NCBI GenBank assembly: GCA_964016885.1
Contig: OZ024741.1
Span: 70,680,001 to 70,744,000, forward strand
Length of the DNA stretch: 64,000 nucleotides
Direction of reading: 5' to 3'
Source: Eledone cirrhosa
Taxonomy: Eukaryota
A program made the position numbers and the translations under genes. The notes beneath the pieces are model-generated. The model did no database searches. It had not been told where the DNA came from and saw only the letters and a program-made list of their open reading frames with translations. Within the stretch, counting starts at the first letter, position 1. The number at the start of each line of letters is the position of its first letter. Below are positions 2,942 through 55,903 of this stretch, one piece after another.

Positions 2942-2953
2942 CTATGTATGTAT

Positions 2954-4200: not shown

Positions 4201-4422
4201 ATGTATATATATGTACATATATATATGAATGTATATGTATATATATAGTAATAAGAATATTTATATTTATATATGTTTGATATAACTATAAATATGTAGG
4301 GTAGTACTAAGTACTAGCCAGTTACCGGTATGACAAAAGGCTCAATGCAAATTTTCAAGTGTTTTACAGAGCCGAGATACAAAGTGTTAAAACGATCAAA
4401 TTTTAGTTTAGAACATTTATTT

Positions 4423-6184: not shown

Positions 6185-8375
6185 ATCATCATCATCATCA
6201 TCATCATCAACGTTTAACGTCCGTGTTCCACGCTTGCATGGGTTTGGACGGGGGTTTTCCCACTTGACGCAAGAGTGATTGTCTTGCTCGCATAGGACTG
6301 TCTGGCAGGTTTTCTACATTTGGATGCCCTTCCTAACACCACCCACATTTACAGTGTGGGTCTGGGAGGTTTTTACCGTGTTGCCTACACGGCCACATTA
6401 CAGCGTGGACTGTGTGTTTTTTTGTCGTGACACCTACACGATCTCATTTGTTTCGGCCTGGATGGTGTGGCACCAATATAACTTTACATAGAAGGGGGCG
6501 GTGTGGATGGGGTGGGGGTGGTGGGACGGGGGTGTATTTTGTTAGAGATGCCTACTGACTGTAGTAGGTTTTACTTTGTATTTAGGTAAGGCGGGTCTTC
6601 TCTATTACTGAGTACCGCCAAAGGTCTCGGTCCAGTGACATTGTCTTGGTGAGGTGTAAGTGTGTGAGGTCGGAGTTTATCAGCTCGTCCCAGGTTTTTC
6701 TGGGTCTGCCTATTCCGTGGCTACCGTCTATCTTTATTGCCCTACACTTTGTTATACAGCTATCGTCCTTCATGCGCATCACGTGACCATACCAACGTAG
6801 CCTTCTCTCTAGTAAACAACATCTGATCCCTCTTATTTCTAATTTTTTCCTTAGTTCGTTTATGCTTTGTCGTTCACGTATATTACTATTACACATCCAG
6901 CGGAGCATGCAAGCTTCGTTTCTCTCTAGTCTGCGTATATCCTCTGCACACAATGCCCAGGTCTCACTGCCGTGCAACATTGTTGTTCGTATGCAGGCAT
7001 CGTACAACCTGCCTTTCATTTTTAGGGAGAACCCTTTAGCGGCTAATAGTGGTATAAGCTCTCTGAACTTTTTCCACCCAGTTCTGACTCTAGCTACTGT
7101 ACTTTCAGAGCACCCTCCCCCACTGCTGATTTTGTCACCCAGGTAACGGAAGCTGTCCACTATTTCTATAGAACCCTCTGCGCAGTTGAAAGAGCTAGTG
7201 TTTTGTGGGCACTTGCTGCTACTTATTGCCCCAGAACACCGGCCACATGTAAAATCTATGTTCTTAGTTAGCTTACCTGTGATCCCACTACATCTTTTAT
7301 GCACCCAAACTTTGCATTTGGGACACAAAATGGAATTTCTAGCTACGCCTTTCCTACACTCTGCACATGGCCACTTCCCGGAGGGGACCGCCGCCTTATT
7401 TTCTTTCTTACAAACTAGAACTTTAGTCTTAGCCAGGTTAATTCTAAGGCCTTTTGATTCTAGGCCGTGCTTCCATGTTTGGAATTTCTTCTCTAGCTCG
7501 GCCATTGATTCAGCTATGAGCGTTAGATCATCTGCGTATAGGAGTTCCCATGGGCAGCCGGTCTTGAACTCCACTGTTATAGCCTGGAGGGCAATAATAA
7601 ATAGTAGGGCGCTAAGAACAGAGCCCTGATGAAAACCAACTTTTACACTAAACTCTTCACTATATTCGTTGTTAATTCTAACCTTGCTGACTGTTTCTTT
7701 ATACATGGCTTGTATAGCTCTCACAAGCCATTCATCAACACCTAGTTTTCTAAGAGCCCACCAGATAATGGAACGGGGGACTCTGTCGAAGGCCTTCTCC
7801 AAGTCGACGAAAGCTAAGTATAGGGGTTTACTTTTAGCTAGGTACTTCTCCTGTAGTTGTCGTACAATGAAAAGAGCGTCTGTGGTACTTTTTCCTGACG
7901 CAAACCCGAACTGCATTTCATCTAGATCAATTCGCTCTCTGATTAGTTGCGCTATTACTTTTTCCGTGACCTTCATGACCTGGTCGATTAATTTAATGCC
8001 TCTATAGTTACTCCTATCTAGGGCATCTCCTTTACCCTTATAACAGTTAACGATGATGCTGCTACGCCAGTCCTTCGGAACAACCCCATTCTGTATGACT
8101 TGGTTGACTATCTGGGTGACCATGGTGTGTCCCACCGTACCAGATGCCTTCAGCATCTCGGCAACTATTTCCGAAGGCCCAGCCGCCTTGCCCGTCTTCA
8201 TATCTTTGATTGCCTTACTTATTATACTACCCTCGACTAACACTGCTGGTCCCTCTATTGGGTCGATGTGGGGGAGACTGTCTTTCTCCCATTTATTCTC
8301 CTCATTTAGTAGCCTTTCATAGTGACACTTCCAAGCTACCTTCTTATCGGCGTCGGTGATGGCAAGTACGCCGTC
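6185..8375 (-). mobile_element. 5'-truncated RTE-clade LINE, young copy with uninterrupted RT ORF (6582-8375)
   Basis: Motifs QFGF, FVDLEKAFDRV, GFHQGSVLS, LLYADD, RLRWYGHVMR and GRPRKTW over about 600 codons without a stop. The 3' UTR ends in (GAT)n, and both ends lie in (TA)n. Confidence 0.95.
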
Positions 8376-8634
8376 ATATATATATAAATGTATGTATATA
8401 TATATATATAAATGTATGTATATATATATATATAAATGTATGTATATATATATAAATGTATGTATATATATGTACATATGTATGTATGTATGTATGTATG
8501 TATCATCATCTTTGTTTAACGTCCATCTTCCACGTTAGCATGGGTTGTATGGTATGTATGTATATATATGTATACATATATATAAATGTATATATATATA
8601 TATATATGTACATATGTATGTATATAAATGCATG

Positions 8635-12753: not shown

Positions 12754-14250
12754 TCATCATTATTATCATTTTACGCCCACTTTTGCCTGCTTGCAAGTGT
12801 GGGATGGTCCTTCGTCATCTCTGCTGTGAGCTTCAGCGATCTGAGGTCAGCTCTCACTACCTCTGCCCATGATTTTCGTGGTCTTCCTCTACTGTATCTT
12901 CCTTCCACTGGGATTTCTTGGCATTTCTTTACTCAGCAGTCATCCTCCATGTGCATCACATGTCCACACCAATGCAGTCTTCTCTCCCGCACACTACCGT
13001 TTATCCCTCTTATACACAGTTTCTCTCTCAACTCATCTATGCTTGGTCGTTCACTCACATTGACAATGCACATCCATCAGAGCATGCTTGCTTCATTTTT
13101 CTCTAGCCATCGCATATCCTCCAAAATTGCTGCCCATGTCTCACTACCATGCAGCATCGCGCATCTCACACAGGCATCATATAACTGGCCTTTCATTCAT
13201 AGGGAGAAACCCTTCTTTCTCAACAAAGGAAGCAGCTCCCTAAACTTCTTCCAACCCGTCCTTATTCTAGATACTATGGCCTCGGAGCATCCTCCTCCCT
13301 TGCTAATCTGATCACCTAGGTATCAGAAGCTATCAACAACCTCTATAGATCCTACCTGCATTTGAAAAATGCGTCTATCACTGCGACTTCTACTGTCAAA
13401 TTTCCCTGTACATCTACTGCATATGCAGTTTTTCTTACCTGTTAGTTTGCCTGCTATCTCACTACATCTTTTGTGTACCCAAAATCTGCATTGTGTACAT
13501 TCTATAGAATTTATGCCAGCTCGTTTTCTACATATCGAACATGGCCATTTCCCTGATGGAATCAGAGTTTTGTCCTCTTTTCTACTTATCAACACTTTAG
13601 TCTTAGCTAGATTCACTCTCAGTCCTCTTGATTTCAACTGCTGTTTCCATAGCCAGAATTTATTCTCTAGCTCCTCTACTGATTCTGCTATAAGTACAAG
13701 ATCATCAGCATAGAGACATTCCCATGGGCAGCCAGTCTTAAACTCCTCTGTTATGAGTGGGCTGAGGATGGAACCCTGATGTAAACCTACTTGTATCTGG
13801 AACTCCTCACTGAACTCCATTCCTACTCTCACTTTACTGACAGCACCCCTGTACATAGCTTGCACTGTCCTCACAAGCCATTCCTCAACACCTAGTTTCC
13901 TTAGGGACCACCAGATGACAGATCGGGTTACTCTATCAAAGGCCTTCTCTAGGACAACAAAAGCTAAGTGGCTTATTCTTCTCTAAGAACCTCTCTTGTA
14001 GTTGTCTCACTAAGAAGAGGGCATCTGTTGTGCTTTTCCAGGCACAAAACCAAACTGCATCTCATCTAATTTGACCATTTCTCTAATTAGTTGCGCTAGT
14101 ATTCTTTCTGTCATTTTCATAACCTGATCCATCAGTTTTATGTTCCTACAATTGCTCCTCTCCAGAGCATCTCCTTTACCTTTGTAGCAATTTATAAGAA
14201 TACTGTTACACCAGTCTTTTGGTATGACTCTGCCATATATAGCTTGATTG
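12750..14250 (-). mobile_element. Degraded RTE-clade LINE fragment
   Basis: Peptides IPKDWCNSILINCYKGKGDALERSN, QFGFVPGK, GLHQGSILSP, LYADDLVL and KWPCSICRK; frameshifted. Related to 6185-8375. Confidence 0.9.
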
Positions 14251-16847: not shown

Positions 16848-17844
16848 GTATTTTATAATTATTGTGAATTCACTGCTTTCAACATTTTCTTGAACAGATG
16901 GCAAATTGGCAAAGTTGTTAGAACACCAAATTAAATGCCTTGATATTTATTCTGGCTTTCTCTGTTCCAAGTTCAAATCTCACCAAAGTCAACTTTGTCT
17001 TTCAAAATTTCAGGGTCTATAAATAAAGCACCAGTGCAAGGGTTGGTGTTTGGTGGAATTGTTAAGAGCCAGGCTCAGAGTCAGGATGTTTTATGGTACC
17101 TGATCTGGCTCTATGCATTCTGAATTTAAATGTGACTTCCGTCTGCCACCCAGTGTGACTCACAGATAATATCAGCAATGGAAAGACGAATGGAAATTTA
17201 GTTTTATTGGCCTAATCTGTTTATCAGCTTCTTTCCTTTTTGTCAGTATTTAGAACAAAGAGACAGCAAAAGGCAAAATCTCCCTATTTCCAAGTTGCAA
17301 ACTCCTCACCAGGAATGTAACTTACAGTAATACCTTCTTCAATGGTAGCCTGGGGAAATTGGCCTCAGACCCAGTCTTCATTACCCGACAAGTTGAGGAT
17401 TCCATGGATTCCATGCTGATAAACATCTGGTATTCTGGACTCCTGAATCACTTCCCTAATCTCATCAATCTGGATGGAGATGGCTATCTGCAAAACAAGC
17501 TGCATGAAGTAGACAAGCTTTTTCAGTACATCTCTCTCACCATCCTTCAGGGTAACACATTTGCTATTGCATTTGCTGGAACCATAAAACATGTGTATGG
17601 CATGTTGGGATCATGAAATTGATAATTGTAGCAATGAATGCAATAGGCTTTAAGTATGGTATTATTTAAATTTGTGGTTAAAATCTAACAACAATGTTCC
17701 TTGTATAAAATTACAAAATTAATATATTTTTTACTGTGTTATGTCCTAAAACAGGCACTTAACCCCATTTACTAACAATTAAGAAATTTCATGTTTTTGT
17801 AATTAATGTCTTTATACATTTCTTTACATTTTGAATTCCTGCAG

Positions 17845-18182
17845 AGCTGGGACAGCATCTACTGTGAACGATGGTTATCGCTTCCATGCCACGAGTTATG
17901 CCAAATTGAAAGTTCAAGATTCATTTCAAGCTAAATTTACAATATCAATGTCATTCAAAACCTCTAAACCCAATGGATTATTAATGTTGATGTACCATGA
18001 CAATGACAAAGATTTTGCTTCTCTTCACCTTCAGGATGGTTATTTAGTATTCCAATTTGAATTAGGAAGTGGGCGTCTCATTCTTCAGACAAAAGAGACT
18101 TATAATGATGGAAAATGGCATAAAGTGGAGGTCAAAAGGAAGGATGCTAAAGGCATACTGATGACTGATGATGAAAAAGAAA
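17845..18182 (+). CDS. LanA: Laminin alpha chain exon (LG2)
   Basis: Acceptor TTCCTGCAG|, donor A|GTAATT, phase 2 to 1. Peptide GYRFHATSYA...ISMSFKTSKPNGLLMLM...DFASLHLQDGYLVFQFELGSG...YNDGKWHKVEVKR. Confidence 0.93.
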
Positions 18183-19339
18183 GTAATTCAGATATTTATT
18201 TCTCTTTCTCTGTGAAGTGAAGTTCTCAGTGTAATTTTGTACTTTTGTTGGTAATACTCAACTTTTAGCTATGTAAGATCATAGACATATAATCCTTTTA
18301 ATACCAACCCAAAACTGGCTCTGTTTCTATGAAACCAGCCATGTATTTTAGAGGGCTCCTATTTAAATTTATATCTTCCAATATAATTTTATATGTGAAC
18401 CTTTTATTACATTACATTACAAATGCAATCTTAATAATGAAATAATTAATAATTTAAGTAAATTCCTGATCTGTCTGTCTATCTGTTTTGTTCGTTTATC
18501 ATGCTCACATCATATAGCAGAAATTTTGTCAGTATGAGAGCTGATGAGGCAGATGAGTGTGTGTGAACTTGTCTAGTCTAGCCTTCTTTTATTTCTATGT
18601 ACACGTATAAACAGACAATTGTACATATTTGACAAGGAGAATATATAACGTTCGTTAATGCATATGAGCGAAGAAGAGCCTAGAGTAAAGTTTAGGTTTC
18701 TTTTCTACATTAACAGGTGAAGTTTAAACTGCATTTCAAAATAATTCACACACAAAGAGGTCCTTTTTTAAAGGTAGTGGTATGCTCGACTGGTTAAGAT
18801 GATGATAATAATGTTGTTGTCATGTTGATTATAAGAATATTCAAAATACAATAAATTAGGGTCGATAGTGTAAAAATACAAACACATGTACACCAGATCT
18901 GAACACAGAGGAGCTGAACTCCCACTGTCATTGGCTCCATCTCTGTGACCCTCCCTATCACTATTATGAACAAATGGGCTCCCACGCGTTGGCGAACCCA
19001 CGGCCCCAGCAGACAAAATAGAGTATTTCTTCTTGTTACTTCTACATGCCAACACATTTCTCCTTATTCCCTTCCTCTCTCAATCATTTCTATATTTCAT
19101 CTGCTTGTCACCCACCTCACAGATTTTCTCTTTCTCAACATCTAAGCACTGATTTCTGTTCTCTAAGGTATATTTACCTGATGCTGTGTTTGACTGCATT
19201 TGGCTGTTTTAGCAGCTATTCATGTGTTGAGTTCTCTAATTTTTCTATGAATTCAAATACACTCAGTTTCATCTTGAACCAAGACAACAATGTTTATTTA
19301 TTTACCTTCAAATTGAGTGTATTTCATTAGAAATATAGT

Positions 19340-21872: not shown

Positions 21873-22848
21873 TATATATAATATATATATATTTATATAT
21901 ATGTAGAAAACCTGCCAGACAGTCCTATGCGAGCGGGATATCACTCTTGCCTCAAGTGGGAAAACCCCCGTCCAAACCCAAGCAAGCGTGGAACACGGAC
22001 GTTGATGATGATGATGATATAATATATATAATATATATAGTAATATACGTGAACGGCAAAGCATAAACGAACTAAGGAAAAAATTAGAAATAAGAGGGAT
22101 CAGATGTTGTTTACTCGAGAGAAGGCTACGTTGGTATGGTCACGTGATGCGCATGAAAGACGATAGCTGTATAACAAAGTGCAGGGCAATAAAGATAGAC
22201 GGTAGCCACGGAATAGGCAGACCCAGAAAAACCTGGGACGAGCTGATAAATTCCGACCTCACACACTTACACCTCTCCAAGACAATGTCACTGGACCGAG
22301 ACCTTTGGCGGTACTCAGTAATAGAGAAGACCCGCCTTACCTAAATACAAAGTAAAACCTACAACAGTCAGTAGGCATCTCTAACAAAATACACCCCCGT
22401 CCCACCATCCCCACCCCATCCACACCGCCCCTTTCAATGTAAAGTTATGTTGGTGCCACAACATCCAGGCCGAAACAAATGAGATCGTGTAGGTGTCACG
22501 ACAAAAAACACACAGTCCACGCTGTAATGTGGCCATGTAGGCAACACGGTAAAAACCTCCCAGCCCCACACTGTAAATGTGGTTGGTGTTAGGAAGGGCA
22601 TCCAGCTGTAGAAAACCCGCCAGACAGTCCACGCTGTAATGTGGCCATGTAGGCAACACGGTAAAAACCTCCCAGCCCCACACTGTAAATGTGGTTGGTG
22701 TTAGGAAGGGCATCCAGCTATAGAAAACCCGCCAGACAGTCCTATGCGAGCAAGACAATCACTCTTGCCTCAAGTGGGAAAACCCCCGTCCAAACCCATG
22801 CAAGCGGGGAACACGGACGTTAAACGTTGATGATGATGATGATGATGA
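21436..22848 (+). mobile_element. Cluster of three 5'-truncated RTE LINE 3' ends (21436-21720, 21903-22017, 22040-22848) separated by (TA)n
   Basis: Near-identical to the reverse complement of 6185-6890 (MRMKDDSCITKCRAIKIDGSHGIGRPRKTW...KTRLT*). The last copy has a roughly 115-bp internal tandem duplication in its 3' UTR. Confidence 0.92.
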
Positions 22849-24409: not shown

Positions 24410-27820
<3,411 letters not shown>

Positions 27821-28627: not shown

Positions 28628-29536
28628 ATATATATTATATATATATAGGCTTGGCACTTGTTGGTATAAGACGTGGTTTTCGTCTCTCCAGATTTGAAAT
28701 TTTAATATTTTAAATCGACAGTAATCGGATTTATGTATGGTTTTAAAATTTTCAGAGGACAAGGAAAACATACCAAAAAGATAAGTTTTTGTGCTTTGAC
28801 GCAATTATTTTGAAGTATATTTTACATATATTACCGTTTTAAACATGTTTATTTTCACTGTGATACCTTCTTAGAAGACAACACACACACGTGCTTTCTA
28901 TTTTTCTTGACTACCATACAGAGCATACGTAATCTAATTTTAGTTTAACTTAAACAGATCTTGTATTATTTTGATTTTTCTGAGTAACATAATTTAATTT
29001 AATATAATCTTGTTTAATTTGGTATAATCTTATCTGTATTTGACTCGATTTCGTTTTCTTGTTTGATATGCTGATATTACAATAACTTCGTATATTTGTA
29101 AACAAACATTTACATTCAACTTATATACAACTTACATCGTGTTTCTATATCTCTATGATTCCGGTTTCTTCCATTCATTAATTTAATTTAAAATTTATTT
29201 TTATATTTATGAACTGCTATTGCTCACGCTGTCTCTATCTCTCTCCTTCCTTCCTCTCTCTCTCTAGATCAACGAGCTCTCTCTCTCCCTCTCCCTAGAT
29301 CAACGAGCTCTCTCTCTCCCTCTCTCTATCTCCTCTCTCTCCCTCTGACCTTCCCCCCCACTCTTCCCGCTATCTCTCTCGCTCCCCTCTTCTGTCTCCC
29401 CCTTTTCTTTTCTTTTCTTCTGTTTCTCTTTCTTTTTCTCGCTGGAGTTATATCTCTATCTCCCTCCCTCATTCTGCCCCTCTCTAACCTCTACCCTACA
29501 CTTCCCACTGTCTCTCTTTCTCCCCTCCATAGCGAA

Positions 29537-30478
29537 ATGGACTGCATGCAGGAAAAAGGTGAAATCAGGAGTCAACAAAACTGGTCAAAGATGGAACTAG
29601 CGGTTTTGATCAAGGGGTGGACCATGGCTGATGGGTCTCCACCAAGCAAAAAGATGGCGGAGAACCTGAAGAGCCATGGGTTTCTGAGGACCCTGGCACA
29701 GATAGAGAGAAAGAGAAAAGAAATTGAGAAGGCGTATGTCCTCATAGCGCCTCATATGGCGATGCTAAGCCGTGTCCTCAGGGAGGAGAAAACCGAAGGG
29801 AGGGATGAGGAGAAGGAGAGGGAAAAGGAAGAGGAAAAAGAAAAGGAGGAGAGCACAAGCACGGACCTGAAAGAAAATGATATACCCTCCGCCACAGGCA
29901 GGGAGGGCATGCCGGGCAACCAACAAGCTAAGGGCAAAGGTGAAAAGCGAAATCACCTTCCGAAGGAGAACCAAGCGCAGAGGGACCAGTGGACAACTGT
30001 TCAAAGAAAGAACAGAAAGCACCGAGACACTGGGAGCAAAAAACCCCAAGTAATGTGCAATTTTTTCAAGAACGGGACATGCTGGCATGGAGAGACAGGG
30101 ATGGGATGCAGATTCGCCCACCCTAGGTCTCAAACGAACTATGCCCATCATACTCGCGCAACATGCCCCAGCCAAAGCCGAAATAAGCCGCTCCAGAAGT
30201 ATGCTGATGTCGCGTGTGCTCCACCAACAAGGAGAAGGCACGCACATGCCGACGAGATACAGATGGCAGCAGCAGATCAGAAAAATTTTTTAGTGATGGC
30301 AGAGAAGATTGTGGGACAGCTGACCTGGCTGCATCGTCTCCAGAGCCAGGGTCATCCACACCAGCACTCGAGACCACCGCAGTTAAGGGACCCAGAGTGG
30401 CCGCCGCTGACACCAGACCAGGTGTCATACCGACAGCCATTACTGGCACCCCAAAAGTCACACCAGTGCTGCTGCTGA
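29537..30478 (+). CDS. LINE ORF1 protein with CCCH zinc finger
   Basis: Intact 313-aa ATG-initiated ORF containing CNFFKNGTCWHGETGMGCRFAHP (C-x7-C-x8-C-x3-H). Confidence 0.8.
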   Translation: MDCMQEKGEIRSQQNWSKMELAVLIKGWTMADGSPPSKKMAENLKSHGFLRTLAQIERKRKEIEKAYVLIAPHMAMLSRVLREEKTEGRDEEKEREKEEEKEKEESTSTDLKENDIPSATGREGMPGNQQAKGKGEKRNHLPKENQAQRDQWTTVQRKNRKHRDTGSKKPQVMCNFFKNGTCWHGETGMGCRFAHPRSQTNYAHHTRATCPSQSRNKPLQKYADVACAPPTRRRHAHADEIQMAAADQKNFLVMAEKIVGQLTWLHRLQSQGHPHQHSRPPQLRDPEWPPLTPDQVSYRQPLLAPQKSHQCCC

Positions 30479-33432
30479 ATGTCAGGGGCCTGGTGAAACT
30501 CAGCAACATGAGTAAAATTTCCTACCTGGGAGACTTAGCCATAAGCAATCAAGCACTATGCATGGCACTAACCGAAACGCACCTGACAAGCAGTATAGCA
30601 GATGCAGAAATACATATACCGAAATATACTGTATTTCGTTCGGACAGGAAGGAGAGAACTCATGGTGGGGTTGCTCTGTATATCCGTGAAGATGTCACAC
30701 CAATTGTACTGTTGACACATTCAAACTCAGTCTGTGACACACTGATAATACATATGAAGCAACTACAGATGGTAATATGTGTCACATATCGGCCGCCCGA
30801 TGCCCCCAGTCATGAGGGTAAATTTGAGCATAGCCTAAGTAGGATAGAAGAGGTCCTTGACAAACTGGACCAGGGTCTCAACATCCTACTGCTGGGAGAC
30901 TTCAACCTACCAAAGGTCAAATGGCCTGAGGGCCACCTCCTCCCTGGAATGACGTCAATAGAACAGAGACAGACGGAATCCCTGCTGGCCCTCACACACA
31001 GGCTGTTCATGGAGCAAGCAATACTCCTCCCAACAAGAGGCGAAAATGTCCTGGACCTCTGTTTTACAAACAACGAAGTGCTCATCCACAATGTAAAGGT
31101 GACACCAACAATTCTCTCGGATCATAACTTAGTAGAGCTAATGATATGTGGTCCAAGAGAACCAACAGAGACAAAACCACCAAGAAGCTCCGGGATGCTA
31201 TCCAACCTTAACTTCTACAAGGCTAACTGGAAAAAGATTAAGAGTGAAATCTGGAAGCAAACATGGAGTGAAAACACTGCCACACAAGACACTAACACAC
31301 AATTTCAACACTTCATGACAACGATACACACCATATGCAAAAAGTGTGTCCCGGAGAAAGAGGCAAACAGACACAAAAATCTTATTCCCAGAGATAGGAA
31401 AATCCTTATGAGACGTAGAACTAAACTCTCAAACCAGTTGAATAGTCAACAAAACAAAAACAAGAAGGAATCCCATTTGAAACGTGCACTACTTGACACC
31501 GAGATTGCACTCAAACTTTCACATGAGAATGAGAGGGCAAAGAAAGAGAACAGGGCCATAGAAAACATTAAAACAAACCCTAAGGCATTCTTTAAATTTG
31601 CGAAAGAAACTGCCTCAGTACACTGCAAGATTGGACCACTCTTCCACACGGACGGTTGATTAACCGAAAATCCCCAAGAGATATGTGAAATACTGAACGA
31701 ACAGTACAAAAGTGTCTTCACATGTCCACTGAGGCACATGCAAATAACGAAGCCAGAGGAGTTCTTTGATGCCACAACACTACATCAAGAAATGGCAACC
31801 ATCAACCACATAGACATAACGGAGGAGGATGTAGTGTACGCCATTGATGAAATTAGAACAGACTCGGCTGCTGGACCAGATTGATTCCCAGCAGTTCTCC
31901 TAAAAATATGTAAGCGGGCCTTAGCAACTCCACTGAAGATGCTCTTCAGAAACTCCTTGGCTAGCGGTGTACTGCCCAGGGAGCTGAAAGAAGGCACAAT
32001 ATGCCCTATCCATAAAGGAAGTAGTAGAGCGGAGGCCAAGAACTATAGGCCAGTCTCCCTGACGTCGCATATCAGTAAGGTCATGGAGCGAGTCGTCAGA
32101 AAGAAACTAATCACTTTCCTCGAAGAAAATGACCGCCTGACTAGCACGCAACATGGCTTCCGCCCAGGAAGAAGCTGCCTTACACAGCTGCTACATCACT
32201 ACGACTGGGTACTGAGACAACTACTAGACAGCTCACATGTGGACATGATATATCTTGACTTTGCGAAGGCCTTTGACAAGGTCGACCACGGAATGATATG
32301 TCACAAGCTACACGGACTCGGCATAACTGGAAAAGTAGGTGAGTGGCTGCATGGCTTCCTAAGGGACAGAAGCCAGGCAGTCGCAGCAAATGGGGCCCTC
32401 TCAAAGGAAACACCAATAATAAGTGGGGTGCCCCAGGGGACAGTCCTGGGACCACTACTGTTTTTGGTGGCTCTCTCGGACATGCCCTCTGTGGTGCATG
32501 CAACAACATCCCTCACTAGCTATGCTGATGACACTAAGGTAGCACAGGCAATCAAAAACCCGGCTGACGCTGCCCTTTTGCAGCAGGATCTGGATGCCAT
32601 ATACAGATGGGCGGAAGAAAACAACATGCAGTTTAATGCTGGCAAATTCCAAGCCCTACAATACAAACCTGCAAACACAAATATAGTGGAACGCAGCTAC
32701 ACGGGACCGGGAGGGACCGATATCCCCGTGTCAAAATCGATACGAGACCTGGGCATAGACATGAGCGATGATGCATCTTTTTCTTCACACATCATGAAGG
32801 TGGCGACAACAGGTAGACGATTCGCTGGCTGGATCTTGGGGACTTTCCTTACAAGAGATCGAGACACCATGTTGACACTGTGGAGGACTTTTGTCCTAAG
32901 CCGCCTGGACTACTGCTCCCAGCTGTGGTCACCCCATAGTGTCAAACTAACCACGGAGCTTGAGGCAATCCAGCGAAGCTACACCAAGAGGATTGCCAAG
33001 ATGAGGGAGACAAGCTACTGGGAGAGGCTGAAGGAACTGAACCTCTACTCCTTGGAGCGAAGACGGGAGAGATACACAGTGATCTACATGTGGAAAATCC
33101 TGGAGGGACTAGCACCAAACTTTGGCATTGGGAGCTGGACCAACCGTCGAACAGGACGTCACTGTGTGGTGCCAAAGGTCCCGTCTTCCACATCTAGAAT
33201 AAGGAGCAGGTATTGCAATAGCCTGGGATTCAAGGGCCCTCAACTCTTCAACAGGCTGCCGAGGCATCTGAGAGACTTGCATGACGTGGAGGTGGATGTC
33301 TTTAAGAAACATCTCGTCATCTTGTTATCCAGGATCCCGGATGAGCCCACAGCAGGACATGAGGGAAACCTAAGGGCAGCAGCAACAAACTCCCTCCTAC
33401 ACCAGTGGCCAACCTATACAGGCTGGAGATAA
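30214..33432 (+). pseudogene. LINE ORF2 (APE endonuclease and reverse transcriptase) with two in-frame stops
   Basis: Endonuclease motifs LLNVRGL, LTETHL, YRPP, LGDFN, LDL and SDH. RT motifs QHGFRPGRSC, YLDFAKAFDKV, GVPQGTVLGP and YADD. Confidence 0.93.
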
Positions 33433-33678: not shown

Positions 33679-33716
<38 letters not shown>

Positions 33717-33719
<3 letters not shown>

Positions 33720-35025
33720 CCCTCTAGTTGATGAAAATGGCACACTTCAAGATAATGCCAAAACCATGTGTTAGATACTGCAGAAACAATACTGCTGTTT
33801 TCAGCAATCCTGATATGGCCGATCTGCGCTGTATCAGTGATGATCTCTAATACACTATATCGGACATAATGTTTGGCGCCCCCGATGTCTTAGCGGCAAT
33901 AAACAAAATTAAACAACAATTCAGCAGTAGACCCCGACAGGTTCCCTGCTTGTGTCCTGAAGGTGTGTCGACACCAACTTGCATCTCCTCTTGCTAATCT
34001 GTGGAGGAACCTACTGGATACTGGCTATATTCCTGAAAACTTTCTGTCCCAGTCCGTTGTCCCAGTCTTCAAAAAGGGAAATAAGTCCCTTGAAGTGAAC
34101 TACCGTCTGATCTCACTCACCTCTCATATTATCAAGGTACTTGAGAGGGTGGTCAGATCACGAATAACCCACTTTCTTGAAAGCAATGGCCTGCTGAACT
34201 CCGGCCAACATGGGTTCCGTAATGGAAGGGACTGCCTAACGCAGCTCCTGTATCACTTTGACGATGTTTTGAGAGCCTTGGGAGAGGGCTCCAACACTGA
34301 TGTCATCTACCTTGATTTCAGCAAGGCCTTTGACAGGGTTGATCATAAAATTCTACTGAAAAAACTATCCATTATTGGTGTCTCTGGAAAGTTACTACGG
34401 TGGATCAAATGTTTCCTGACAGGCAGAACCCAACATGTTGTAGTCGAAGGAGTAAAATCAAGCACTGCCAAAGTCAGCAGTGGCGTCCCACAAGGTACTG
34501 TGTTGGGCCCACTTCTTTTCATCATCTACATTGACATTACTGAGATCATCAAGCACAGAAACATAAGAATCTTCGCAGATGATACCAAGCTCCAAAGGGT
34601 CATCAATGAGGTGGGTGACCGGACTTGCCTTCAGTCAGACCTACTGGCTGTTATCCAATGGGCAGAAAAGATGTTGAATGAGGATAAGTTTGAATTAATC
34701 CACTTTGGAAAAAAGGATGCCCTGAAACTACCATACTCTCTTCCTTCGGGTGAAACTTTAGTGGCATCCAACAACATCAGAGACCTGGGAGTAATTGTGG
34801 ACAACAACATAAGCTGGGCCACTCATATAAACAGCAAAGTTGACATGGCCTGCAGAATGTGTTCCTGGATTCTCAGAAACTTCCAGTCGAGAGATAACCA
34901 CACTGTTATCCTTCCCTTCTCCACTTTTGCCCGACCCCACCTTGAATACTCTTGTCCATAGTGGTCTCCCCACATGAAACAAAGTATCATGAAAGTTGAA
35001 GCACCCCAAAGATCAATTATAAAAA

Positions 35026-35027
<2 letters not shown>
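33717..35027 (+). mobile_element. CR1-group LINE RT fragment, truncated at both ends by (TA)n
   Basis: ORF 33963-34961 contains QHGFRNGRDC, YLDFSKAFDRV, GVPQGTVLGP and FADDTK. Confidence 0.92.
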
Positions 35028-35088
<61 letters not shown>

Positions 35089-38595: not shown

Positions 38596-39146
38596 GTAAG
38601 TTCCATTATAATTATAATTTGAAAATCATAGAATGCCAGGGTAAATGCCAGTATAATATCTATTTTAAGTAAGGTAGCATTTAGCGCCTTCATTACCATA
38701 TATCTAATGCAAAACACTGTCTAAATTTTTCAAATGCTTTTTAAGATAATCAAACACCTGAAGAGCTTTGTTAATGTAACATGTCTTCACATTATTATAT
38801 CGGTGTTTTGCATAAAATTATAATAGAGGGTTTTTAGATAAATACAAACACTTTAAAATAAACAGTTTGTATCATAGAACCAGGATGGTTTCAGATGTCT
38901 TGGATTCAAAGTGTTAAAATGTTTTAGATTTAAAAAGAATCCCAGTTGACCAAAGGAATATAGTTTGTGTGTATCAGTGTTAGTGTCTCCCAAACAATAT
39001 ATCCTGGTGGTCACTCAACAATATTTTCTTGATATATCTAATTCAAAATAAAGGTCGCTGCTTCTTCTCTTCCCTTCTATTACATTATTTCATATATTTA
39101 TTCTTTTACATTTTCTGTATTCTAATTTTTAATTTCTCTTCCATAG

Positions 39147-39269
39147 TGGGAAAATATAAGCAGCTCCTCACATTGTCTGTGACTGGCTTCAAAAGAAATG
39201 ATATATTTGGTCATAGAGGTGTTAGTGAGACTAAAACAAATGATCCACTCTATATTGGAGGCATACCTG
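39147..39269 (+). CDS. LanA: Laminin alpha chain exon (LG5)
   Basis: Acceptor TTTCTCTTCCATAG|, donor G|GTAAGA, phase 1 to 1. Peptide GKYKQLLTLSVTG...ETKTNDPLYIGGIP. Confidence 0.92.
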
Positions 39270-39784
39270 GTAAGAGAACATTTTCTTGGTTCATTTTATT
39301 TATTTGTGGTGCAGCTAACTAGAAAAATAAATTAGACAAATCATTAAACTCTATTAGTGATGGGCTTTTTCCTGTAATACAAAAATGTATAGTTTCATAT
39401 AATCTAGAGCCTATTACTCTGCTGAGCTTACAAACAATTTAAATTATGATATTAGTTTTAAGAAAATCTAATAATCAATTTACTTGATGCTGTTCACACT
39501 GAGATCATTAAACATGGCTGGCTTCCCATCAGAGCTGGAACCAGAAGTGTTAGACTGAGGTGGTAGCCAAAAAAACAGACAGTACCACAATTTTTCTGTT
39601 CCAAGACAGTAAGCCCTTTATCTGGGATGTGAGCTGTTGCAGTACTTTCTCCAGTGGCAACCTGCTGAATACAGCATCAAACTCGGGTTTCATTGCCCAA
39701 CAGGCTAAGGAGTACCAGCTGTTCTTTGAAAGATTTCTTGTTGGATCCATAGTGGTAAAAACATCTGATGTCCTATGTGCTTAA

Positions 39785-47645: not shown

Positions 47646-49452
47646 ACAGGTTGCAAAAAAAAACTGATTTCTTTTGGCAACGCAAAAAATATTTTCCCCT
47701 TAAGGAATAGATACAGACTGAAAGATACGTATTTTATAGTCTCTGTGTTGAGTTTGTATAATAATTAGAACTGACCATTAAAGCTTCCGATTTGATAAAA
47801 GTTGTTATACACTCCAGTACAACCTTATGTCACAAGAAAGAACTAAGGAGACTCTATATGAACACTTGATATGTTAAAGATAAGAGCCAAGTCTTACTCA
47901 AACCAAATTCACATTTTCTTTAAAATAAAGTATGCATTGAATAATGAAGCCTATATATTAAAAACAACAAGCTGGTCATAGCTGGAGTGCAGTTGGTCAT
48001 GAGCATTCTTCATAAAAGCTTACCTGGGGCTAAACAACAGCAACCACAACAACAACATGTTAAAACTTAACGTTCTGCACCACATGAAACTGCATTGAGA
48101 AGACATTCTTAAAAAGTACGAAAAAGCACCAAGGGGTCTGGTCTCTTTTCCTATTTACTAATAATGTAGTTTTTCTCAAGTTTACAATAATCCTTTTTGA
48201 TTCTAAATTCTGTTTTCAAAGCAAGAATTTCTTCTTAAGCTCTTCTACGCATTCACCTATGAAAACCAGGTCATCAGAATGTAGAAGTTCCCATGGACAG
48301 CAAATTTTGACAATAATCTGTCTACTATTAAAAATAATATAAACATTTGAATTGAATAACGTTTTTTGGTTTGTTTGTTTTTAGATATTTTGCTACATCA
48401 TTACAGTATTAAGAGTTAATACTGCATTTCCATTGAAATGAAATATACTTTGTACAATTATTTAAACAAGGGAGATCACTAACACTGCATTTGATAAAAG
48501 GGAGACAACTCTATATAGATTTGAAAAACTGTCCGTGAGACATACATATACACCAGGTCCGAACACAATGAAAACCAATTCACACTGTCTCCGTCTCTTC
48601 CGCTCTTCCCATTACTCACTATTATGAGCAAATTGGGTTCAGGATCTGGCCACCCCGCGGCCCCGGTGGACTAGCCATCCCACTGCTAGGGTGGACAGAA
48701 TAGAGAATGCGTTTCCCCCCGAGGATGGCGACGGAAACGCTCTGGAAGAGCCATTCCAGCACGCGAGGCTTACACCTGCGGGTAGCCAATTCTGTGCCAA
48801 TGGTGTGAGTAGGGAGGTGGCCCTAGGGCCAAGGGCACCAGAAGTTTGCATTAAGCCTAAGATTGATATGCAGGGAAAAGGAACCAAATCTTTTTGAAAT
48901 CAAACTCTCTCGTCTTTAAAGAAAAAGGAGTTACTTTCTCACATTCTAATGACGGAAACGTTTGTAAAAATATTTGTATATTTCAGAGTGAAGTATTACA
49001 CTATAGGAACGCATTTTGCCATATGACTGCTTGATAAGGAATGACCTAGAGCTAGATAACAACAATGAACCAGCGAAAGAGACACTGCATGATTATTAGA
49101 GCTGTTAGAAAGGGCAGCCAAAGTTATCTAAAGTCACACCTAAAAACATATACATTATATATATAATCCAAAAATATATTATGACTGAAAATGAATGTTG
49201 GGATTGTCATGGTTGGAACATCCTTAATTATAGGTCTTCCCTATCAGAATTCGCCAGAGTCTAGGGAATAAAAATCTACATACTTCACATTGTGTTCAAT
49301 TTTACAAGGTACTGCTGCTGCTGCTGCTACTACTACTACTACCGCTGAGAGAAGAGGGAGTTAATTTAAGTGATATAACGAGTCTCAATGTTACTGTTAA
49401 ATAGTAAAACAGTTTAAAATGTTCACGAATGTTCATGTCTTAATATGTATGA

Positions 49453-52400
49453 ATAATAATAATGAAATTATTGTTACAGTGCTCAGGTGCACTACAACTC
49501 ATAAAATGTGCATGTATAGTACATAGAATAATGTTCAAATGTCAGGAAAATGAACAGTGTATGAGTCATGAAATACATGTGTGCGTGTGTATGGAGGGGG
49601 TGCATCAGGTGTAGTGTTGGCGAATTTCAGGAAGCATGGAAGTTTTAAAAGATGCAGGTTGTTTGTTCCATGCTTCAGCAACTCTGAGCGTAAAAAATGT
49701 TTCCAAAAGTAATTGGTGCTGTACTGTTTTCTGACTTTTTAGGCATGCCCACGTGTGTTAGACACATGGAAATCAAAAAGGTACTCAGGGTTGTTGTTGG
49801 CAACATGGTTAATAATTTTGTGGGTGTTTACCAAGTCAGTTGCTAGACGTCAGAGCTTCAATGTATCCATGCCCAGGGAAGCAAGGAGCTCAGAGTATGG
49901 TAGATGCCTGATGGAAGGTATTCGCTTTGTTACACGTCTCTGAACAGTTTCCTGGAGTTCTGAGCAAGATAGGGGTTCCAGACTGGTGATGCAAATTCTA
50001 AGTGTGGCCACACCGTAGCTATATGCAGCTTGAAATAGATAGCTGGAGAGTGGCTGACAAAGGTCTTGCTGAGTGATGCTAAGACACTCTTGGCCTTCTT
50101 GAAAATTTTAGAGTTGTGTTTCGTCCAACACAAATCACTGCTGACAGTAATGCCCAGGTCACGTTCACAAGAAGACTTCTTGATATTAGTGTTGTGGACG
50201 CTGGGTTTTTTCCTCCCAAAATGCATGGTGGTACACTTTTCCACAGCCAACTTGAGTTGCCAGTCCGTGATACATTGCTGCATTGTGTCCAGGTATGATT
50301 GCAGGAAAGATCTATTGTGTTCAGGATCTGTCCTTTTTATCTCAAGGTACAGCTTGATGTCATCTGCATATTTCAGTACTGTGGCATTCTTTAAGTTGGA
50401 ATTTATGTCATTAATATATGCCACAAACAAAAGGGGGCCAAGAACAGATCCCTGTGGTACACCAGATTACATCTCATATGGTGAGGAATGCTGTCCTAGA
50501 ACCGTGACTACCTCTCTTCGACTGAGAATGAAGGACTTCAACCAGTTAAAAAGATCATCCTTCACACCTATTGCAGAGAGTTTTGCCATAAGTCTTTTGT
50601 GTGGCACAGAATTGAAAGGGTGGATGTTGTTTACCATGAGTCGCCTTCAGTGAACCGGGTGATGTCTTCAAGAAACTCAATAAGTTGATCACAGCAGCTG
50701 GAGTTAGGGATAAATCCAAATTGCAAGGGCCAAATAAGACTGTGAGAGTTCCAGAAGTTCCAAAGGGTTTCTCTGACACAGGATTCCATCAGTTTAGCAA
50801 TGCAACTAGTAAAACTGATTGGATGATAGTTGACAGCCGGTGCGGTTACTCTTTTTGAACAGAGGAATGACACTGGCAGTTTTCCACTGCTCCAGAATAG
50901 CACCATTGTTAAGACAGAATTGAAAGAAGAGTGAAAGCTGGTGCAGAAGGAAGTACCCACCACGTTTGAGAAGCAGGTGCGTAACACCATCAAGACCAGG
51001 AGAGGCATGGTTGCATTTATTCTTAAGGTGACACCGCAGCATTGCAGGTGTAAATTTCATAGATGTTATAGAATTTGATGTCAGAGGTGGTGGAGATGGT
51101 ACATTTTGGTCTTTAACAGTGAAAATGCCTGCATAGCATTCAGCAATGAGTTTTGCGCATTCCTTGGCGTCATCAGTAATTTGGTTTGTGTGGGGATTGC
51201 GAAGAGGACCAACTGGAGAGTGAGGTCTCTGCTTTGAGTGTACATATTTTCAGAACACCTTACTGTCAGGGTTGGTTGCTATGCGCTGTTCAAATTCAAG
51301 CACTGCCTTTTTTTGTCACCTGCTTGAGATTGGATGATTTATTTCGCTTTTTCCTATTGATATCTGATTTATGCAGTTTGTACTCATGTCAGCATTACGA
51401 TGTTCTTTTCTGGCAAGACGGACTGCTGCAGTCTCCCAAATTGCACTTTTGGGATGTTTTTTCTGCTTACGTGGCACCGATGCTGCACATGCTGTCCATA
51501 TTGAGTTCAGGATGTTCTGGAGTAGAGTGTTGACATTTCCAGAGTCGTAAAATTCAAGCTAGTTTGGACATTGCAGTTCGGTGCAGTAACAGTTCCAGTC
51601 TGCTTTATTCCAGTCAAAGTGAGCAGTTTGGAGATGGTTGTGGTTTTTGTTACTGCCCATGAAGGACAGATTGGCAATGATCATAGCATGATCAGAGTCA
51701 CCTAAAGTTTCCTCAATAGTAACACTAATAACCATTTCAGGAGAAGTGGTGAAGAGTAGATCCAAAGTGTTGTCTCCTCTTGTTGGGGAGGTGACTACTT
51801 GGGACTAGTTCGAGTCCAGCACTAGCTGAAAGAAATCATTTGCACTTTGCGGCCAACGAAATGTTTCCCAGTCAATCTCAGGGTGATTGAAATCCCCTGC
51901 AATAAAAACATAAGTGGCTGTTTTCCTGGCAGCAGCTCTAAGGATATCACAAAGCTGAGTCTCCTGATGGTAGTTTGGCGGGCAGTAAACAACTCCAAGT
52001 AGAAGAAGTCTTGACATGGTCATACATATATCGCAGAAAAATGCTTCTTGCAGTGATTGGTTCAAATCAATGCAAGAAATTGCTGAAAAGTTTAAACGAA
52101 CGTAGACCATTACACTACCACCACCACAATTATTGCAGTCTTTACGAAACAAGTTGTAGCCAGCTATGCTGAAAACCCCATCACAGAGTAAGGAATGTGC
52201 CCATGTTTCCGTGACTGTAATGAAGTCAGGGTCAATACTTTTGATGTAAGAATCAAATAGATGTATCTTGTTGATTAGACTACGTGCTTTTAAGGACAAC
52301 AACTTGTGCCTTGATTTCAGTCTATGATGATGTGTAGGGGATGGCAGGTTGTTCTGATTTAGTTTCCCAGAGTTTTTTCAGTTTTTTTATTGCAAGTTGT

Positions 52401-53780
52401 TGTGAGTACAGTGTTTTCAGACCAGCTGATATCTCTTTTCCATGTTTCACCAGCCTTAATAAACTTCCATATCTGCCCATCCTCACGTAGGCTGAAGCTT
52501 TCATGTTGTGCTGATTTGCGGTTTAAAGAAGCTGCAGCACATAGCTTTGGGCGTACATCAGGTGGAAGACCAAGGCATGTTCGGAAGGCAATCTGATTTT
52601 CATGCCTAGCTTTATCAGAGGCTAAACGATATAAACGTGCCTCAGAAGAGTTTAAAAAAAGACAGCCTAATTAGCCTGGGTTTCACACCTGGTCGGCCAA
52701 GGTAGAGAGCACCCTTCAGGGGAGCACAGCCTAGGTCTTTTGATGAGCTGGCAGTAAATGTCTGAAGAAGAACTATGTCTTCTGGTACACCAATGGCAAT
52801 TACTTTGTGGTTTACAGATTCAGTGGCTTTTTCAATGAGTCTAGATTCGGCAAGAGCTACGGGGAGATTTTTTAACAAGGCACTCCAGTAAGAGTGAGGT
52901 TCTACACAAACGCTTGATTTGATTCCTGCTATTTCTCGGCTTAAAGCAGAAATCATTTGCCGTATTTCCGCAAACTCCGTATTGATGGTCGATTTTTGTT
53001 GTTGTTCTTCTTCTTCTTCTTCAACAGGAATGGTAGGGGAAGACAGTCGTCGGTGGTGGTTGTTGAGAAGTAATGGGGAAGGAAGACATGGGTTGCTGTT
53101 GTTGATGATGTTCTTCAACAGGAGTAGTAGCAGAAGCTACGGTCGTTGGTTTTTGCCGTTGTTCAGGAACAATGGTAGAGGCAGACATACAAACCAGGCA
53201 CTGAAAGGACCAATTTGGTAGCTGGGCCATTTCCCAGAGCCCATCCACCATAGAAATATGGTGTTTCTTTTTCTGACCTGGGATCTTTTGAAAGTTTGTG
53301 GCACATTGAAGGCAAACAGAAACGCGACATTTGTCACATTCAACCCAACGATTTCGGAAGGAGTTCTCTGGTTCTGTACATAGATGACAGACGTGATTTT
53401 CTGGGCAATGTTCTACTTTGGAACATCGCCCAGTTTTATCACACACTTCATCCATGGATATTACAATAGCAATTTTGTTCTGTCTGTCCATCCGTACAGT
53501 AGAACAAAATGTAAACAAATAGATATGCTGCGTAACTTTAGCACATTTGTTAACGAGATAAATAAAATGTTTCTTTGTGTGTTGTTTTTGTAATTTTGTT
53601 TCTGTTTTCCTATGTATTGTGTGTCTGTATGCAAAAAGATCTGCACACGAATATATAATTTTATATATATAATTAAAAGGTGTATGTGGGTTAGAAACGA
53701 AGTCAATGTTCAGAGTGGTTTTATAATGTACGTAAGTTTGGCCGGTATAGTATCTCACAGTGTGGTTTGTTTTCACTTTG
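49453..53780 (-). mobile_element. Near full-length degraded CR1-group LINE (PHD-finger ORF1, EN+RT ORF2)
   Basis: ORF1 from about 53491 contains CHLC...WVECDKC...CLQC...FQCLVC, is frameshifted twice and ends ...WKRDISW...TLGN* at 52359. ORF2 contains LKARSL, VTETW, AGDFN, GDSDH, VPQGSVLGP and YADD. The (ATT)n tail is at 49453. Confidence 0.93.
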
Positions 53781-53784
53781 TGTG

Positions 53785-55903
53785 TGTAGCGGTTGTCTCC
53801 CTTGTTTGGATTAACATCTGGACGGGAAGTGGAACCCTTTCTGTAACTTCCGGCAGAGCCCTATAAAACGAATAGCTCTCGGTTCTCTGCCTCTCATTGC
53901 CCTTTCGGCACCAGGCCAAGAGCCTCTCATTTGGCCAACAGGCGCCTGGCCTTAGCCAGGCGTCCTCTGCCAGCCGCGTTTGCCTGGCAATCAAAACGGT
54001 AACGACTAACTTTGTTTCATTCTATCATCTATTTCTTTGACATGTCAACTATACTATCTACCATTGTTAATTAAATATTATACACACAAACAATGTATTC
54101 CTTGTTGCATTCATACAACCCAGTATCTTCGCTATATTGGTAACCCTGACGTGATACGAACACGCAGCCGTTCATCGCTATAAGTGGTCACCCCGAAAAA
54201 AGAAAAAAATAGCAGATCTGGTATTGTGTGAGTAACATTACGAATACACAGCAAATTTATCGACAAACTATGAAAATACTCAAAGAAACGGACACACGCA
54301 CATGTGGAATTCGCGTTCAGACAGACTTTTTCTCTCACGCATCAACTAACTGTCGCATTTCCCGATATATATTCTCGTTTCTTACAACGAACACTTTCAA
54401 AACAAAAAAAAATAAAAAACATTTCACGATATATATATATGTTTCTCGTTTCTTACAACGAACTCTTTCAAAACAAAAAAAAAAAGAAATTTGATATTCT
54501 TTAAAAAACATTTCAACAGGAACATTTATTTTCGATGAACCATTGCCTTTTTTTTTCATCGTTTTCTTCATCGTTCAAGTTTTTTTTCCAAAGTTCACAC
54601 CAATAATTATGCTGAGTGAAGCCTTTCTTTTTCATCATTGTCACTTTCACACTTGCACTATCATTTTCTCGCGCGTTAGAAATATTATTTTTTGAACCTT
54701 GTATTGGCACGTGTAGGCAGCACAAATTCTCGACTCACAGAGATAGCCGCACGCCAGAGATAACGTTTCTCGCCAAGGATTCTTCAGCCTTAAGCTATAT
54801 TCTCCTATTTGCCGGTTTAAAAATTTACTACGTAAATTTGCCGTTGAAAACTGCGCATTTATTCAGAATGCTTATTTCTTTGGTCGTTGGCCTCTTGACC
54901 TTTCCAGGTCAACGCATTCTCAACATCGACCATCAACTTCGGCTGCTATTTCTAGCACTTTGCGCAACTCATTTTTTCTGAAAAAAATTTTTTTTACTGT
55001 GAATTTAAACACCGAATACGCTCACTCAGCGAGACAACAGCAGCAGCAACAGCAATATAACAGCAACAGCAGCAGCAATACAGCAGCAACAGCAATACAG
55101 CAGCAACACCACCAGCAACAGCAACAGCAATACAGCAGCAACAGCAACAGCAATACATCAACACAGCTTCACCAACAACCAAAGCCAGAGAATTTATTTT
55201 TGCAGCACTCTTCCTGTGAGAAAATCCATTCGGAGGTTGGAAATTTCACGATATACCACAGAACAGAAACCACCTGCATTCATTCTCTGGAACACACTTT
55301 CTTTCCTTCTGTCATGTGATTGCACACCTGTGAACTATATTTGAACTTTGAGCCCTTCTCTTACTTTATTACATTGTATCTTTGGGTGATGGATAGATAG
55401 ATGTCCAGTCGTTCTCTGGCTAAGAGCGGTTGGCTACCTTGGTATCTATCATTGATTTTTGCAAACATTCTTTTGTCGTAATTTTCATGCCTGTTACAAC
55501 ATTCTCGCCAACTTGCTATATATTTTCATTCGATTTTTATATCCTAAAATTCTGGCGGGAGGTTATGTAGCGGTTGTCTCCCTTGTTTGGATTAACATCT
55601 GAACAGTGGAACCCTTTCTGTAACTTCCGGCAGAGCCCTATAAAACGAATAGCTCTCGGTTCTCTGCCTCTCATTGCCCTTTCGGCACCAAGCCAAGAGC
55701 CTCTCATTTGGCCAACAGGCGCCTGGCGTCCTCTGCCAGCCGCGTTTGCCTGGCAATCAAAACGGTAACGACTAACTTTGTTTCATTCTATCATCTATTT
55801 CTTTGACATGTCAACTATACTATCTACCATTGTTAATTAAATATTATACACACAAACCATGTCTCGTTTTGTTACATACATACAACCCAGTACTCTCGCT
55901 ATA
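53785..55903 (+). mobile_element. Non-autonomous LTR retroelement (Gypsy-type signals), about 2.1 kb
   Basis: LTRs at 53785-54136 and 55566-55903 (TGTAGCG...CGCTATA). PBS TGGTAACCCTGACGTGAT at 54138-54155 (tRNA-Trp type). PPT-like CTGGCGGGAGG before the 3' LTR, a TGTG target duplication, and no gag/pol ORF. Confidence 0.9.
55035..55180. repeat. (CAG/CAA)n imperfect trinucleotide repeat inside the LTR element
   Basis: Directly visible. Confidence 0.9.

Follow-up and report, generated by a model that had tools for sequence, protein, structure and literature searches.

A phased slippery heptamer at the ORF1/ORF2 junction of a probable CR1-lineage LINE from Eledone cirrhosa points to expression of ORF2 by -1 ribosomal frameshifting

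For LINEs other than L1 and SART1, the way in which ORF2 is translated is largely open. The question is raised by a decayed element on the minus strand of a 64,000-nucleotide stretch of Eledone cirrhosa DNA (contig OZ024741.1, positions 70,680,001 to 70,744,000; hereafter, the window), whose ORF1 ends on the heptamer G GGA AAC and whose endonuclease frame lies at -1. A sequence-only reading of the window had proposed that ribosomes shift frame at this heptamer to express ORF2. We evaluated this proposal in the window, in other copies of the element, and in related LINEs. The features concerned are the following (window positions).

49452-53788, minus strand: the element, a decayed but near full-length LINE, probably of the CR1 lineage (family A, subfamily A1), from BLASTN with the intact copies L093 and L261 (74-86% identity).
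53024-53491, minus strand: 5' part of ORF1, a Cys/His-rich zinc-finger region, PHD-like by eye, with only weak Pfam matches (ZZ, C1) below cut-off.
52645-53136, minus strand: middle part of ORF1, a long helix and an RRM (RRM fold in the L093 model), in a frame different from that of the 3' part.
52359-52670, minus strand: 3' part of ORF1, a C-terminal domain and an unstructured tail ending in TLGN and the stop, from translation, copies, and the L093 model.
52378-52380, minus strand: TGA closing the ORF2 (-1) frame upstream, 16 nt of overlap from there to the ORF1 stop; same place in 27/29 anchored copies.
52362-52368, minus strand: slippery heptamer G GGA AAC, the final two sense codons of ORF1, kept in copies and in L151.
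52359-52361, minus strand: ORF1 stop TAA abutting the heptamer (TAG in L151).
52303-52361, minus strand: linker translated in the -1 frame, from heptamer to endonuclease, containing a CTG at 52347-52345 (a rival start, missing in L151).
52298-52353, minus strand: stem drawn in the sequence-only reading (arms 52353-52343 and 52310-52298), unsupported by folding and pair conservation.
52274-52326, minus strand: predicted +36 stem, so called because it begins 36 nt past the heptamer (base arms 52326-52318 and 52282-52274), partly decayed here, from folding and the A1/A2 comparison.
51808-52302, minus strand: APE endonuclease domain of ORF2 (Pfam PF03372, E 1.4e-9, and PF14529).
49930-51249, minus strand: reverse transcriptase (RT) remnants with stops and frameshifts, from translation and from PF00078 on intact L093.
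30283-30292, plus strand: companion site in family B, where two heptamers in tandem, A AAT TTT and T TTT TTA, are in phase with ORF1 and ORF2 lies at -1, found in 30/30 loci.

We first established the junction itself. The heptamer (52368-52362) and the stop codon (52361-52359) were verified at the end of ORF1. On the minus strand of the window copy, the ORF1 frame reads ...GAA AAA ACT CTG GGA AAC TAA and the ORF2 frame reads ...AAA AAC TGA AAA AAC TCT GGG AAA CTA AAT CAG...; the TGA of the latter and GGG are separated by three codons, and LLSLKARS, with which the endonuclease starts, lies 22 open codons past GGG, just as the sequence-only reading had described. The first ATG of the -1 frame (52110-52108) is codon 89 of the 190-codon open frame and is located downstream of the ETW motif, which bears out the claim that no ATG precedes the interior of the endonuclease. 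G GGA AAC, which had been called a canonical X XXY YYZ site, figures among the highly shifty sequences in the account of PMC5009743. An ORF1/ORF2 junction with a phased heptamer is thus real in the window copy.

We then looked into the identity of the element. In intact L093, Pfam found PF03372, PF14529, and PF00078, so that ORF2 contains an APE endonuclease and an RT, the two domains by which the ORF2 of CR1-group LINEs is defined (PMC13343379); Pfam detected no protease domain in ORF2. The best named matches of the RT half were RT proteins of birds and turtles, at 33-40% identity, plus one record labeled as a MAG, and CR1 is described as the dominant LINE of birds (PMC11835228). The homologue search with ORF1 returned two proteins, the single named one being an octopus protein. 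The middle and 3' parts of ORF1 lie in different frames in the window, since this copy, whose degradation had been recognized at the outset, carries private indels: a 1-nt insertion near 52662 faces a gap in 27/30 aligned copies. The frame ending in GN and the stop is the true ORF1 frame, as it is unbroken from the RRM motif GRPGPKPRLIRLSF to this end in other copies, among them L008, L015, L017, L022, and L026-L028.

An AlphaFold model of L093 ORF1, made from four sequences (mean pLDDT 49; about 70-88 in the RRM region), contains a helix (248-271), an RRM (308-385), and a small domain (392-431), and leaves the final 13 residues, ending in GN, unstructured with pLDDT under 50. Its RRM matches that of human L1 ORF1p (2w7a; Z 8.0, rmsd 2.6, 80 aligned) and generic RRMs equally well. 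The ORF1 of family A is thus predicted by the model to consist of a coiled coil, a single RRM, and a CTD (Tnp22-like), as in ORF1 type IIC of CR1-lineage LINEs, which is described as a PHD followed by a Tnp22-like coiled coil-RRM-CTD (PMC4120745). Family A and the type IIC elements of that paper share a Cys-rich finger, a long helix, an RRM, a small C-terminal domain, and an APE-RT ORF2, but the PHD of type IIC found no Pfam confirmation here. The N-terminal Cys/His-rich region gave sub-threshold ZZ and C1 matches in the window copy and none on L093, so that Pfam gives weak zinc-finger matches, but no confirmation, for the label "PHD" of the sequence-only reading.

To look beyond a decayed copy, we searched the 3.0-Gb assembly at the DNA level and scored the best 40 of 1309 candidates, which gave 30 loci (the window copy and 29 others at 90-92% identity). 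Among these closest copies (best 40 of 1309 candidates scored), 26/30 have an intact heptamer, followed by TAA in 25, and the -1 frame opens at the identical TGA in 27/29 anchored copies. GGGAAAC TAA was also present in 29/30 further A1 loci, and heptamer plus TAA in 82/90 matched family A loci (two loci having been fetched twice). Such sharing within a subfamily is no evidence of selection, since it is inherited by descent. The frame relation holds in intact young copies as well, where ORF2 lies at -1 without an early AUG. Young A1 copies with a complete ORF1 exist (L242, 409 aa), and in the intact A2 copy L093 an ORF1 of 455 aa is overlapped by 49 nt by an ORF2 of 957 codons, stop to stop, at -1, with its first Met at codon 101; this 957-codon frame is present in L091-L098. 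Each of two intact ORF1s (455 and 409 codons) contains only one other in-frame strict heptamer, which, together with the survival of the site in distant relatives, speaks against mere chance.

The first AUG in family A copies lies 41-60 codons past the motif-I Asn of the endonuclease; in young A1 copies, its distance from the start of the open frame is 70 or 89 codons. In an alignment with human L1 ORF2p, the ETW motif of L093 falls at E43, a residue with a catalytic role, and the first Met of the ORF2 frame comes after this motif; a start at the first AUG would therefore yield a dead endonuclease. An AUG at or near the ORF1 stop and ahead of the endonuclease, as needed for stop-start coupling of the SART1 type, is absent in family A. 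Two copies, L261 (reverse complement, from 1390 on) and L262 (identical to L248), carry 1381-codon ORF1-ORF2 fusions, created by indels where six A precede the heptamer. We rejected the idea of a fused subfamily: the two indels differ and are therefore separate mutations or assembly errors. No naturally fused longer homologue was found among 7973 candidates, a result that weighs little.

Comparison with more distant relatives was more informative. Between A1 and A2, heptamer and stop are identical at 10/10 bases and the flanks at 33/45 and 35/45, which taken alone is weak. Between A2 and L151, a metagenome relative (among the best 80 of at least 504) with 54% identity in the endonuclease, heptamer and stop agree at 9/10 bases, the stop being TAG, and the flanks at 13/45 on either side. 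The ORF1 of P0001 (61% identity) ends in SVGN, and the tail residues preceding GN vary, with indels, among family A, L151, and P0001. The heptamer, whose conservation the earlier proposal depended on, is therefore kept from the closest copies to L151 despite unalignable flanks, and is conserved beyond its surroundings. L151 has an ATG two codons ahead of the motif-I Asn. Two rather close ORF2 relatives, P0028 and P0037 (48-50% RT identity), carry before the endonuclease a Met-started leader of 100 residues with an RGCRxG motif; given this leader, some members of the lineage probably use an AUG of their own to start ORF2.

We then asked whether other LINE families of this genome have similar junctions. 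Beside families A and B, a Pfam search (150 scored, 30 loci) and two DNA searches delineated families C, D, E, and F, whose endonucleases are 22-42% identical between families, except for C and D (72%). In families B, C/D, E, and F, ORF2 lies at -1 with an in-frame heptamer, and in B, C, E, and F no undamaged copy has an AUG ahead of the motif-I Asn. Family C has a TTTTTTAG site in 5/5 loci and its sister D in 4/11; in the old and damaged family E, C CCA AAA occurs two codons upstream of the ORF1 stop in 6/20; in family F, T TTT TTA occurs two codons past the stop of the -1 frame in 17/20. The sequence-only reading had drawn its generality from two families, the second represented by the site at 30286; the family B heptamers are present in all 30 loci examined, and the other families are likewise phased. 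Judged from these sequences, invertebrate CR1-group families with non-esterase ORF1s carry several heptamer types at their ORF1/ORF2 junctions. The fold downstream of the family B site is not significant (z -0.07).

The family B element itself (29122-33432, plus strand) is young, with 40/40 scored copies 99-100% identical at the junction, and in the window copy its ORF2 is broken between 31659 and 31885. It may lie within an intron of a laminin-G-type gene: by motif, the open frames at 17807-18220 and 38984-39322 (plus strand) resemble laminin-G domain exons. The window also contains 5'-truncated copies of family A (2951-4204, minus strand) and family D (33716-35033, plus strand), a 650-codon RT frame of another LINE type (6582-8534, minus strand), presumably RTE-like from its motifs, with pieces again at 13323-13982 and 22018-22344, and a 3.4-kb (TA)n array (24410-27820) adjoining a gap of 200 N.

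The survey was extended to further lineages by a metagenome scan, which gave at least 595 stretches, with 504 relatives among the matches listed; the best 80 and five in-genome representatives made a set of 85. Seven were dropped (five with a broken endonuclease, two without the motif), as were 10 more with an upstream ORF under 100 codons, including L151, and the 68 sequences left fell into 52 lineages at 70% endonuclease identity, mostly metagenome contigs. In these lineages (best 80 of at least 504 relatives), ORF2 was at -1 relative to ORF1 in 43 cases, at +1 in 8, and in frame in 1. In 26/43 of the -1 lineages (again from the best 80 of at least 504), the overlap contained a strict heptamer in phase with ORF1; the other frames had 3 and 6, and the expectation from the ORF1 bodies was 3.5. 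When G_GA heptamers were allowed, a class added after it had appeared in the data, the count within the same best 80 of at least 504 reached 39/43, versus 6.7 expected; such heptamers occur naturally (PMC5009743). Clustering at 55% left 13/19 lineages with a strict heptamer and 15/19 with G_GA included, for 2.2 and 3.0 expected (best 80 of at least 504). None of 200,000 simulations attained the observed counts, a figure that overstates the significance: most of the heptamers come from two clades of the endonuclease tree, with 24 and 8 rows, so that the lineages do not count as independent cases. Family A is weakly placed on this tree.

The position of the heptamer is telling. Among the best 80 of at least 504 relatives, it lies at a median of 12-16.5 nt past the stop that closes the ORF2 frame, and the overlaps have medians of 112-204 nt and a maximum of 451 nt. 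Since the heptamer stays near the ORF2-frame stop despite long overlaps, it is the heptamer, and not the ORF1 stop, that marks where the ORF2 frame becomes open. With the ORF1 protein motif [FWL]xVVG as an independent anchor, chosen without regard to DNA, a slippery heptamer of one of four types was found at one position in 25/25 anchored lineages (best 80 of at least 504), and EN, KN, or GN dipeptides elsewhere in ORF1 spell a slippery heptamer in only 6/153 cases. Both frames encode varying residues there (EN, GN, KN, LN; GK, KK, FK), and the sisters L210 and L213 (support 100/96) have G GAA AAC and U UUA AAC, respectively. An AUG precedes the first endonuclease motif in 16/43 of the -1 lineages and 6/8 of the +1 lineages (best 80 of at least 504). 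Four -1 lineages, L177, L194, L204, and L208, are without any listed heptamer; they form one weakly supported clade of the endonuclease tree (80/69) and may use a noncanonical site or reinitiation. As a side observation, the first Val codon of VVG is GTG in 25/25 lineages (L152-L223, e.g., L158, L166, and L213), for a background of 245/870, so that GUGGU is fixed about 13 nt past the heptamer. GUGGU is a candidate RNA-level stimulator, or else a constraint from the ORF2 frame.

We then analyzed the RNA downstream of the heptamer, where classical frameshift stimulators usually start after a spacing of 5-9 nt. The imperfect stem that the sequence-only reading had offered as a stimulator can be drawn and begins 8 nt past the heptamer, but its fold is at chance level (-8.6 kcal/mol, z -0.59, 54/200 shuffles equally good). 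Pair conservation was scored on the 72 gap-free sequences among 80 family A junctions (56 A1, 16 A2): pair 21-66 is a C.A mismatch in 53/56 A1 and 16/16 A2 copies, two more pairs are broken in 28/56 and 18/56 young A1 copies, and no pair covaries. This stem was accordingly abandoned. Another predicted stem, at +36, has 15 bp in A2 and a 9-bp base in A1. Its z score is -5.5 in L091 (A2), with an A2 median of -7.4 over a shorter folded segment (16/16 at or below -2); in A1, the median is -2.0, and the window copy scores -2.6. A2 and A1 differ at two of its pairs, one being A-U versus G-C and the other G-C versus G-U, so that a single compensatory event between the subfamilies provides suggestive support; the L151 junction folds differently. 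The +36 stem is not a classical stimulator, as it is too distant to touch a ribosome positioned on the heptamer. A pseudoknot between +7..+14 and the loop of this stem was rejected: it can form in both subfamilies but is invariant, and 48 and 409 of 1000 shuffles were as good in duplex energy. In 40 lineages (best 80 of at least 504), the 60 nt past the heptamer folded no better than shuffled sequences and showed no common structure (mean z -0.30; 3/40 at or below -2). Neither in family A nor across these 40 lineages did we find a supported 3' hairpin or pseudoknot a few bases downstream.

Altogether, the frame relation, the lack of a usable AUG, the conserved phased heptamer, and its recurrence in several families uphold the earlier proposal, without its stem, and from them we infer that -1 ribosomal frameshifting at G GGA AAC probably produces an ORF1-linker-endonuclease-RT fusion in family A. 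Most ribosomes would terminate at UAA and release ORF1p. In a minority, the tRNA-Gly and tRNA-Asn paired with GGA AAC would re-pair on GGG AAA, and these ribosomes would continue via CUA AAU CAG to a product of about 1,400 residues in L093 (455 + 941). The fusion would stay uncleaved, since no protease domain was found in ORF2, and through its ORF1 portion the enzyme could stay anchored in ORF1p oligomers bound to the same RNA. The pause might come, as a guess, from slow termination at the abutting stop, perhaps with distant help from the putative +36 stem. We put forward tentatively, and slightly on the doubtful side of even, the broader proposal that -1 shifting is the default mode of ORF2 expression in two-ORF CR1-group LINEs across animals, whatever their ORF1 type; it would yield an uncleaved ORF1-endonuclease-RT fusion without a classical adjacent structure and would be driven by the abutting stop or by a short RNA motif located downstream, namely GUGGU for the largest surveyed clade and the +36 stem for family A.

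Other routes to ORF2 have to be weighed against frameshifting. Ribosomes might terminate at the ORF1 UAA and restart, aided by a stem, at a near-cognate CUG 12 nt past the stop, releasing a free ORF2p as in L1 and SART1. The linkers of A1 and A2 indeed have CTG as codons 7 and 16, the real-looking +36 stem with its compensatory pair lies downstream of the ORF1 stop, where SART1 requires a structure (PMC10275272), the start of L1 ORF2 is thought to be AUG independent (PMC5009743), and L151 offers its ATG close to the motif-I Asn. L151, however, lacks the CTG while keeping heptamer and stop, and reinitiation accounts neither for the heptamer nor for the preponderance of -1 over +1 (43:8; best 80 of at least 504 relatives), nor for those relatives in which the open ORF2 frame reaches back to a heptamer as much as 450 nt upstream of the ORF1 stop. 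We consider this route, the foremost alternative to frameshifting, unlikely.

It is also conceivable that the heptamer is a by-product of protein constraint, on Gly-Asn or on a double-coded overlap, with ORF2 made in another way. Constraints on the protein can fix bases where overlaps are double-coded, and in the largest surveyed clade the site sits within the ORF1 C-terminal domain, next to the conserved FxVVG, with both frames coding. This explanation is nonetheless quite improbable, as slipperiness is kept in 25/25 lineages while the residues vary in both frames, the background is 6/153, and in family A the site terminates an unstructured, indel-rich tail. A last possibility is that splicing, or polymerase slippage in the A-run immediately before the heptamer, brings the two frames together in the RNA. 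A1 has six A between TGA and heptamer, and it is there that indels fuse the ORFs of L261 and L262, yet these indels differ and come from only 2 among 109 listed matches, the six-A run is kept in neither A2 nor L151, and a spliced fusion RNA, once copied back, should have founded a subfamily, none of which was seen. Joining at the RNA level is very improbable, the least likely of these routes.

Frameshifting as proposed for family A resembles -1 frameshifting between gag and pol of retroviruses and LTR elements (PMC5009743) in its canonical heptamer in the upstream frame, its enzyme ORF at -1, and its excess of structural protein. It differs in that the element is a non-LTR one, no protease domain was found in ORF2, no hairpin or pseudoknot is supported 5-9 nt downstream, and the stop abuts the heptamer. 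TRE5-A and TRE3-A of Dictyostelium are said to need a -1 frameshift for ORF2 and are likewise APE-type non-LTR elements with two ORFs, APE, and RT; these elements are amoebozoan, target tRNA genes, and have a C-terminal zinc finger, and the description we relied on names no slippery site (PMC5911963). L1 and SART1 share with family A a bicistronic LINE RNA and a low ORF2 level, and SART1 a structure downstream of the ORF1 stop (PMC5009743, PMC10275272). They differ in having an AUG located at the ORF1 stop or beyond it; in family A, no AUG precedes the catalytic motifs, and the slippery heptamer is kept.

We found no report of -1 frameshifting in CR1 elements in the open full-text literature, where older subscription papers and Repbase notes are mostly missing. 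Some early descriptions of CR1-group elements reportedly mention overlapping frames. The main text of PMC4120745 contains neither "frameshift" nor "overlap," that of a 2026 survey of CR1 (PMC13343379) does not mention frameshift, slippery, overlap, or start codon, and the frameshift discussion of LINE-type elements in PMC5009743, as far as its text was covered, is confined to HeT-A, TART, and L1.

If frameshifting is confirmed, the enzyme of CR1-group LINEs would be a fusion with ORF1p and not a free ORF2p, which would explain cis-preference and the ORF1p:ORF2p ratio in a simple way. The annotation of ORF2 starts in repeat databases would change, and CR1 retrotransposition assays would have to keep the junction intact. 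These junctions would also add a large group to the natural -1 sites of cells, apparently one that does without classical stimulators.
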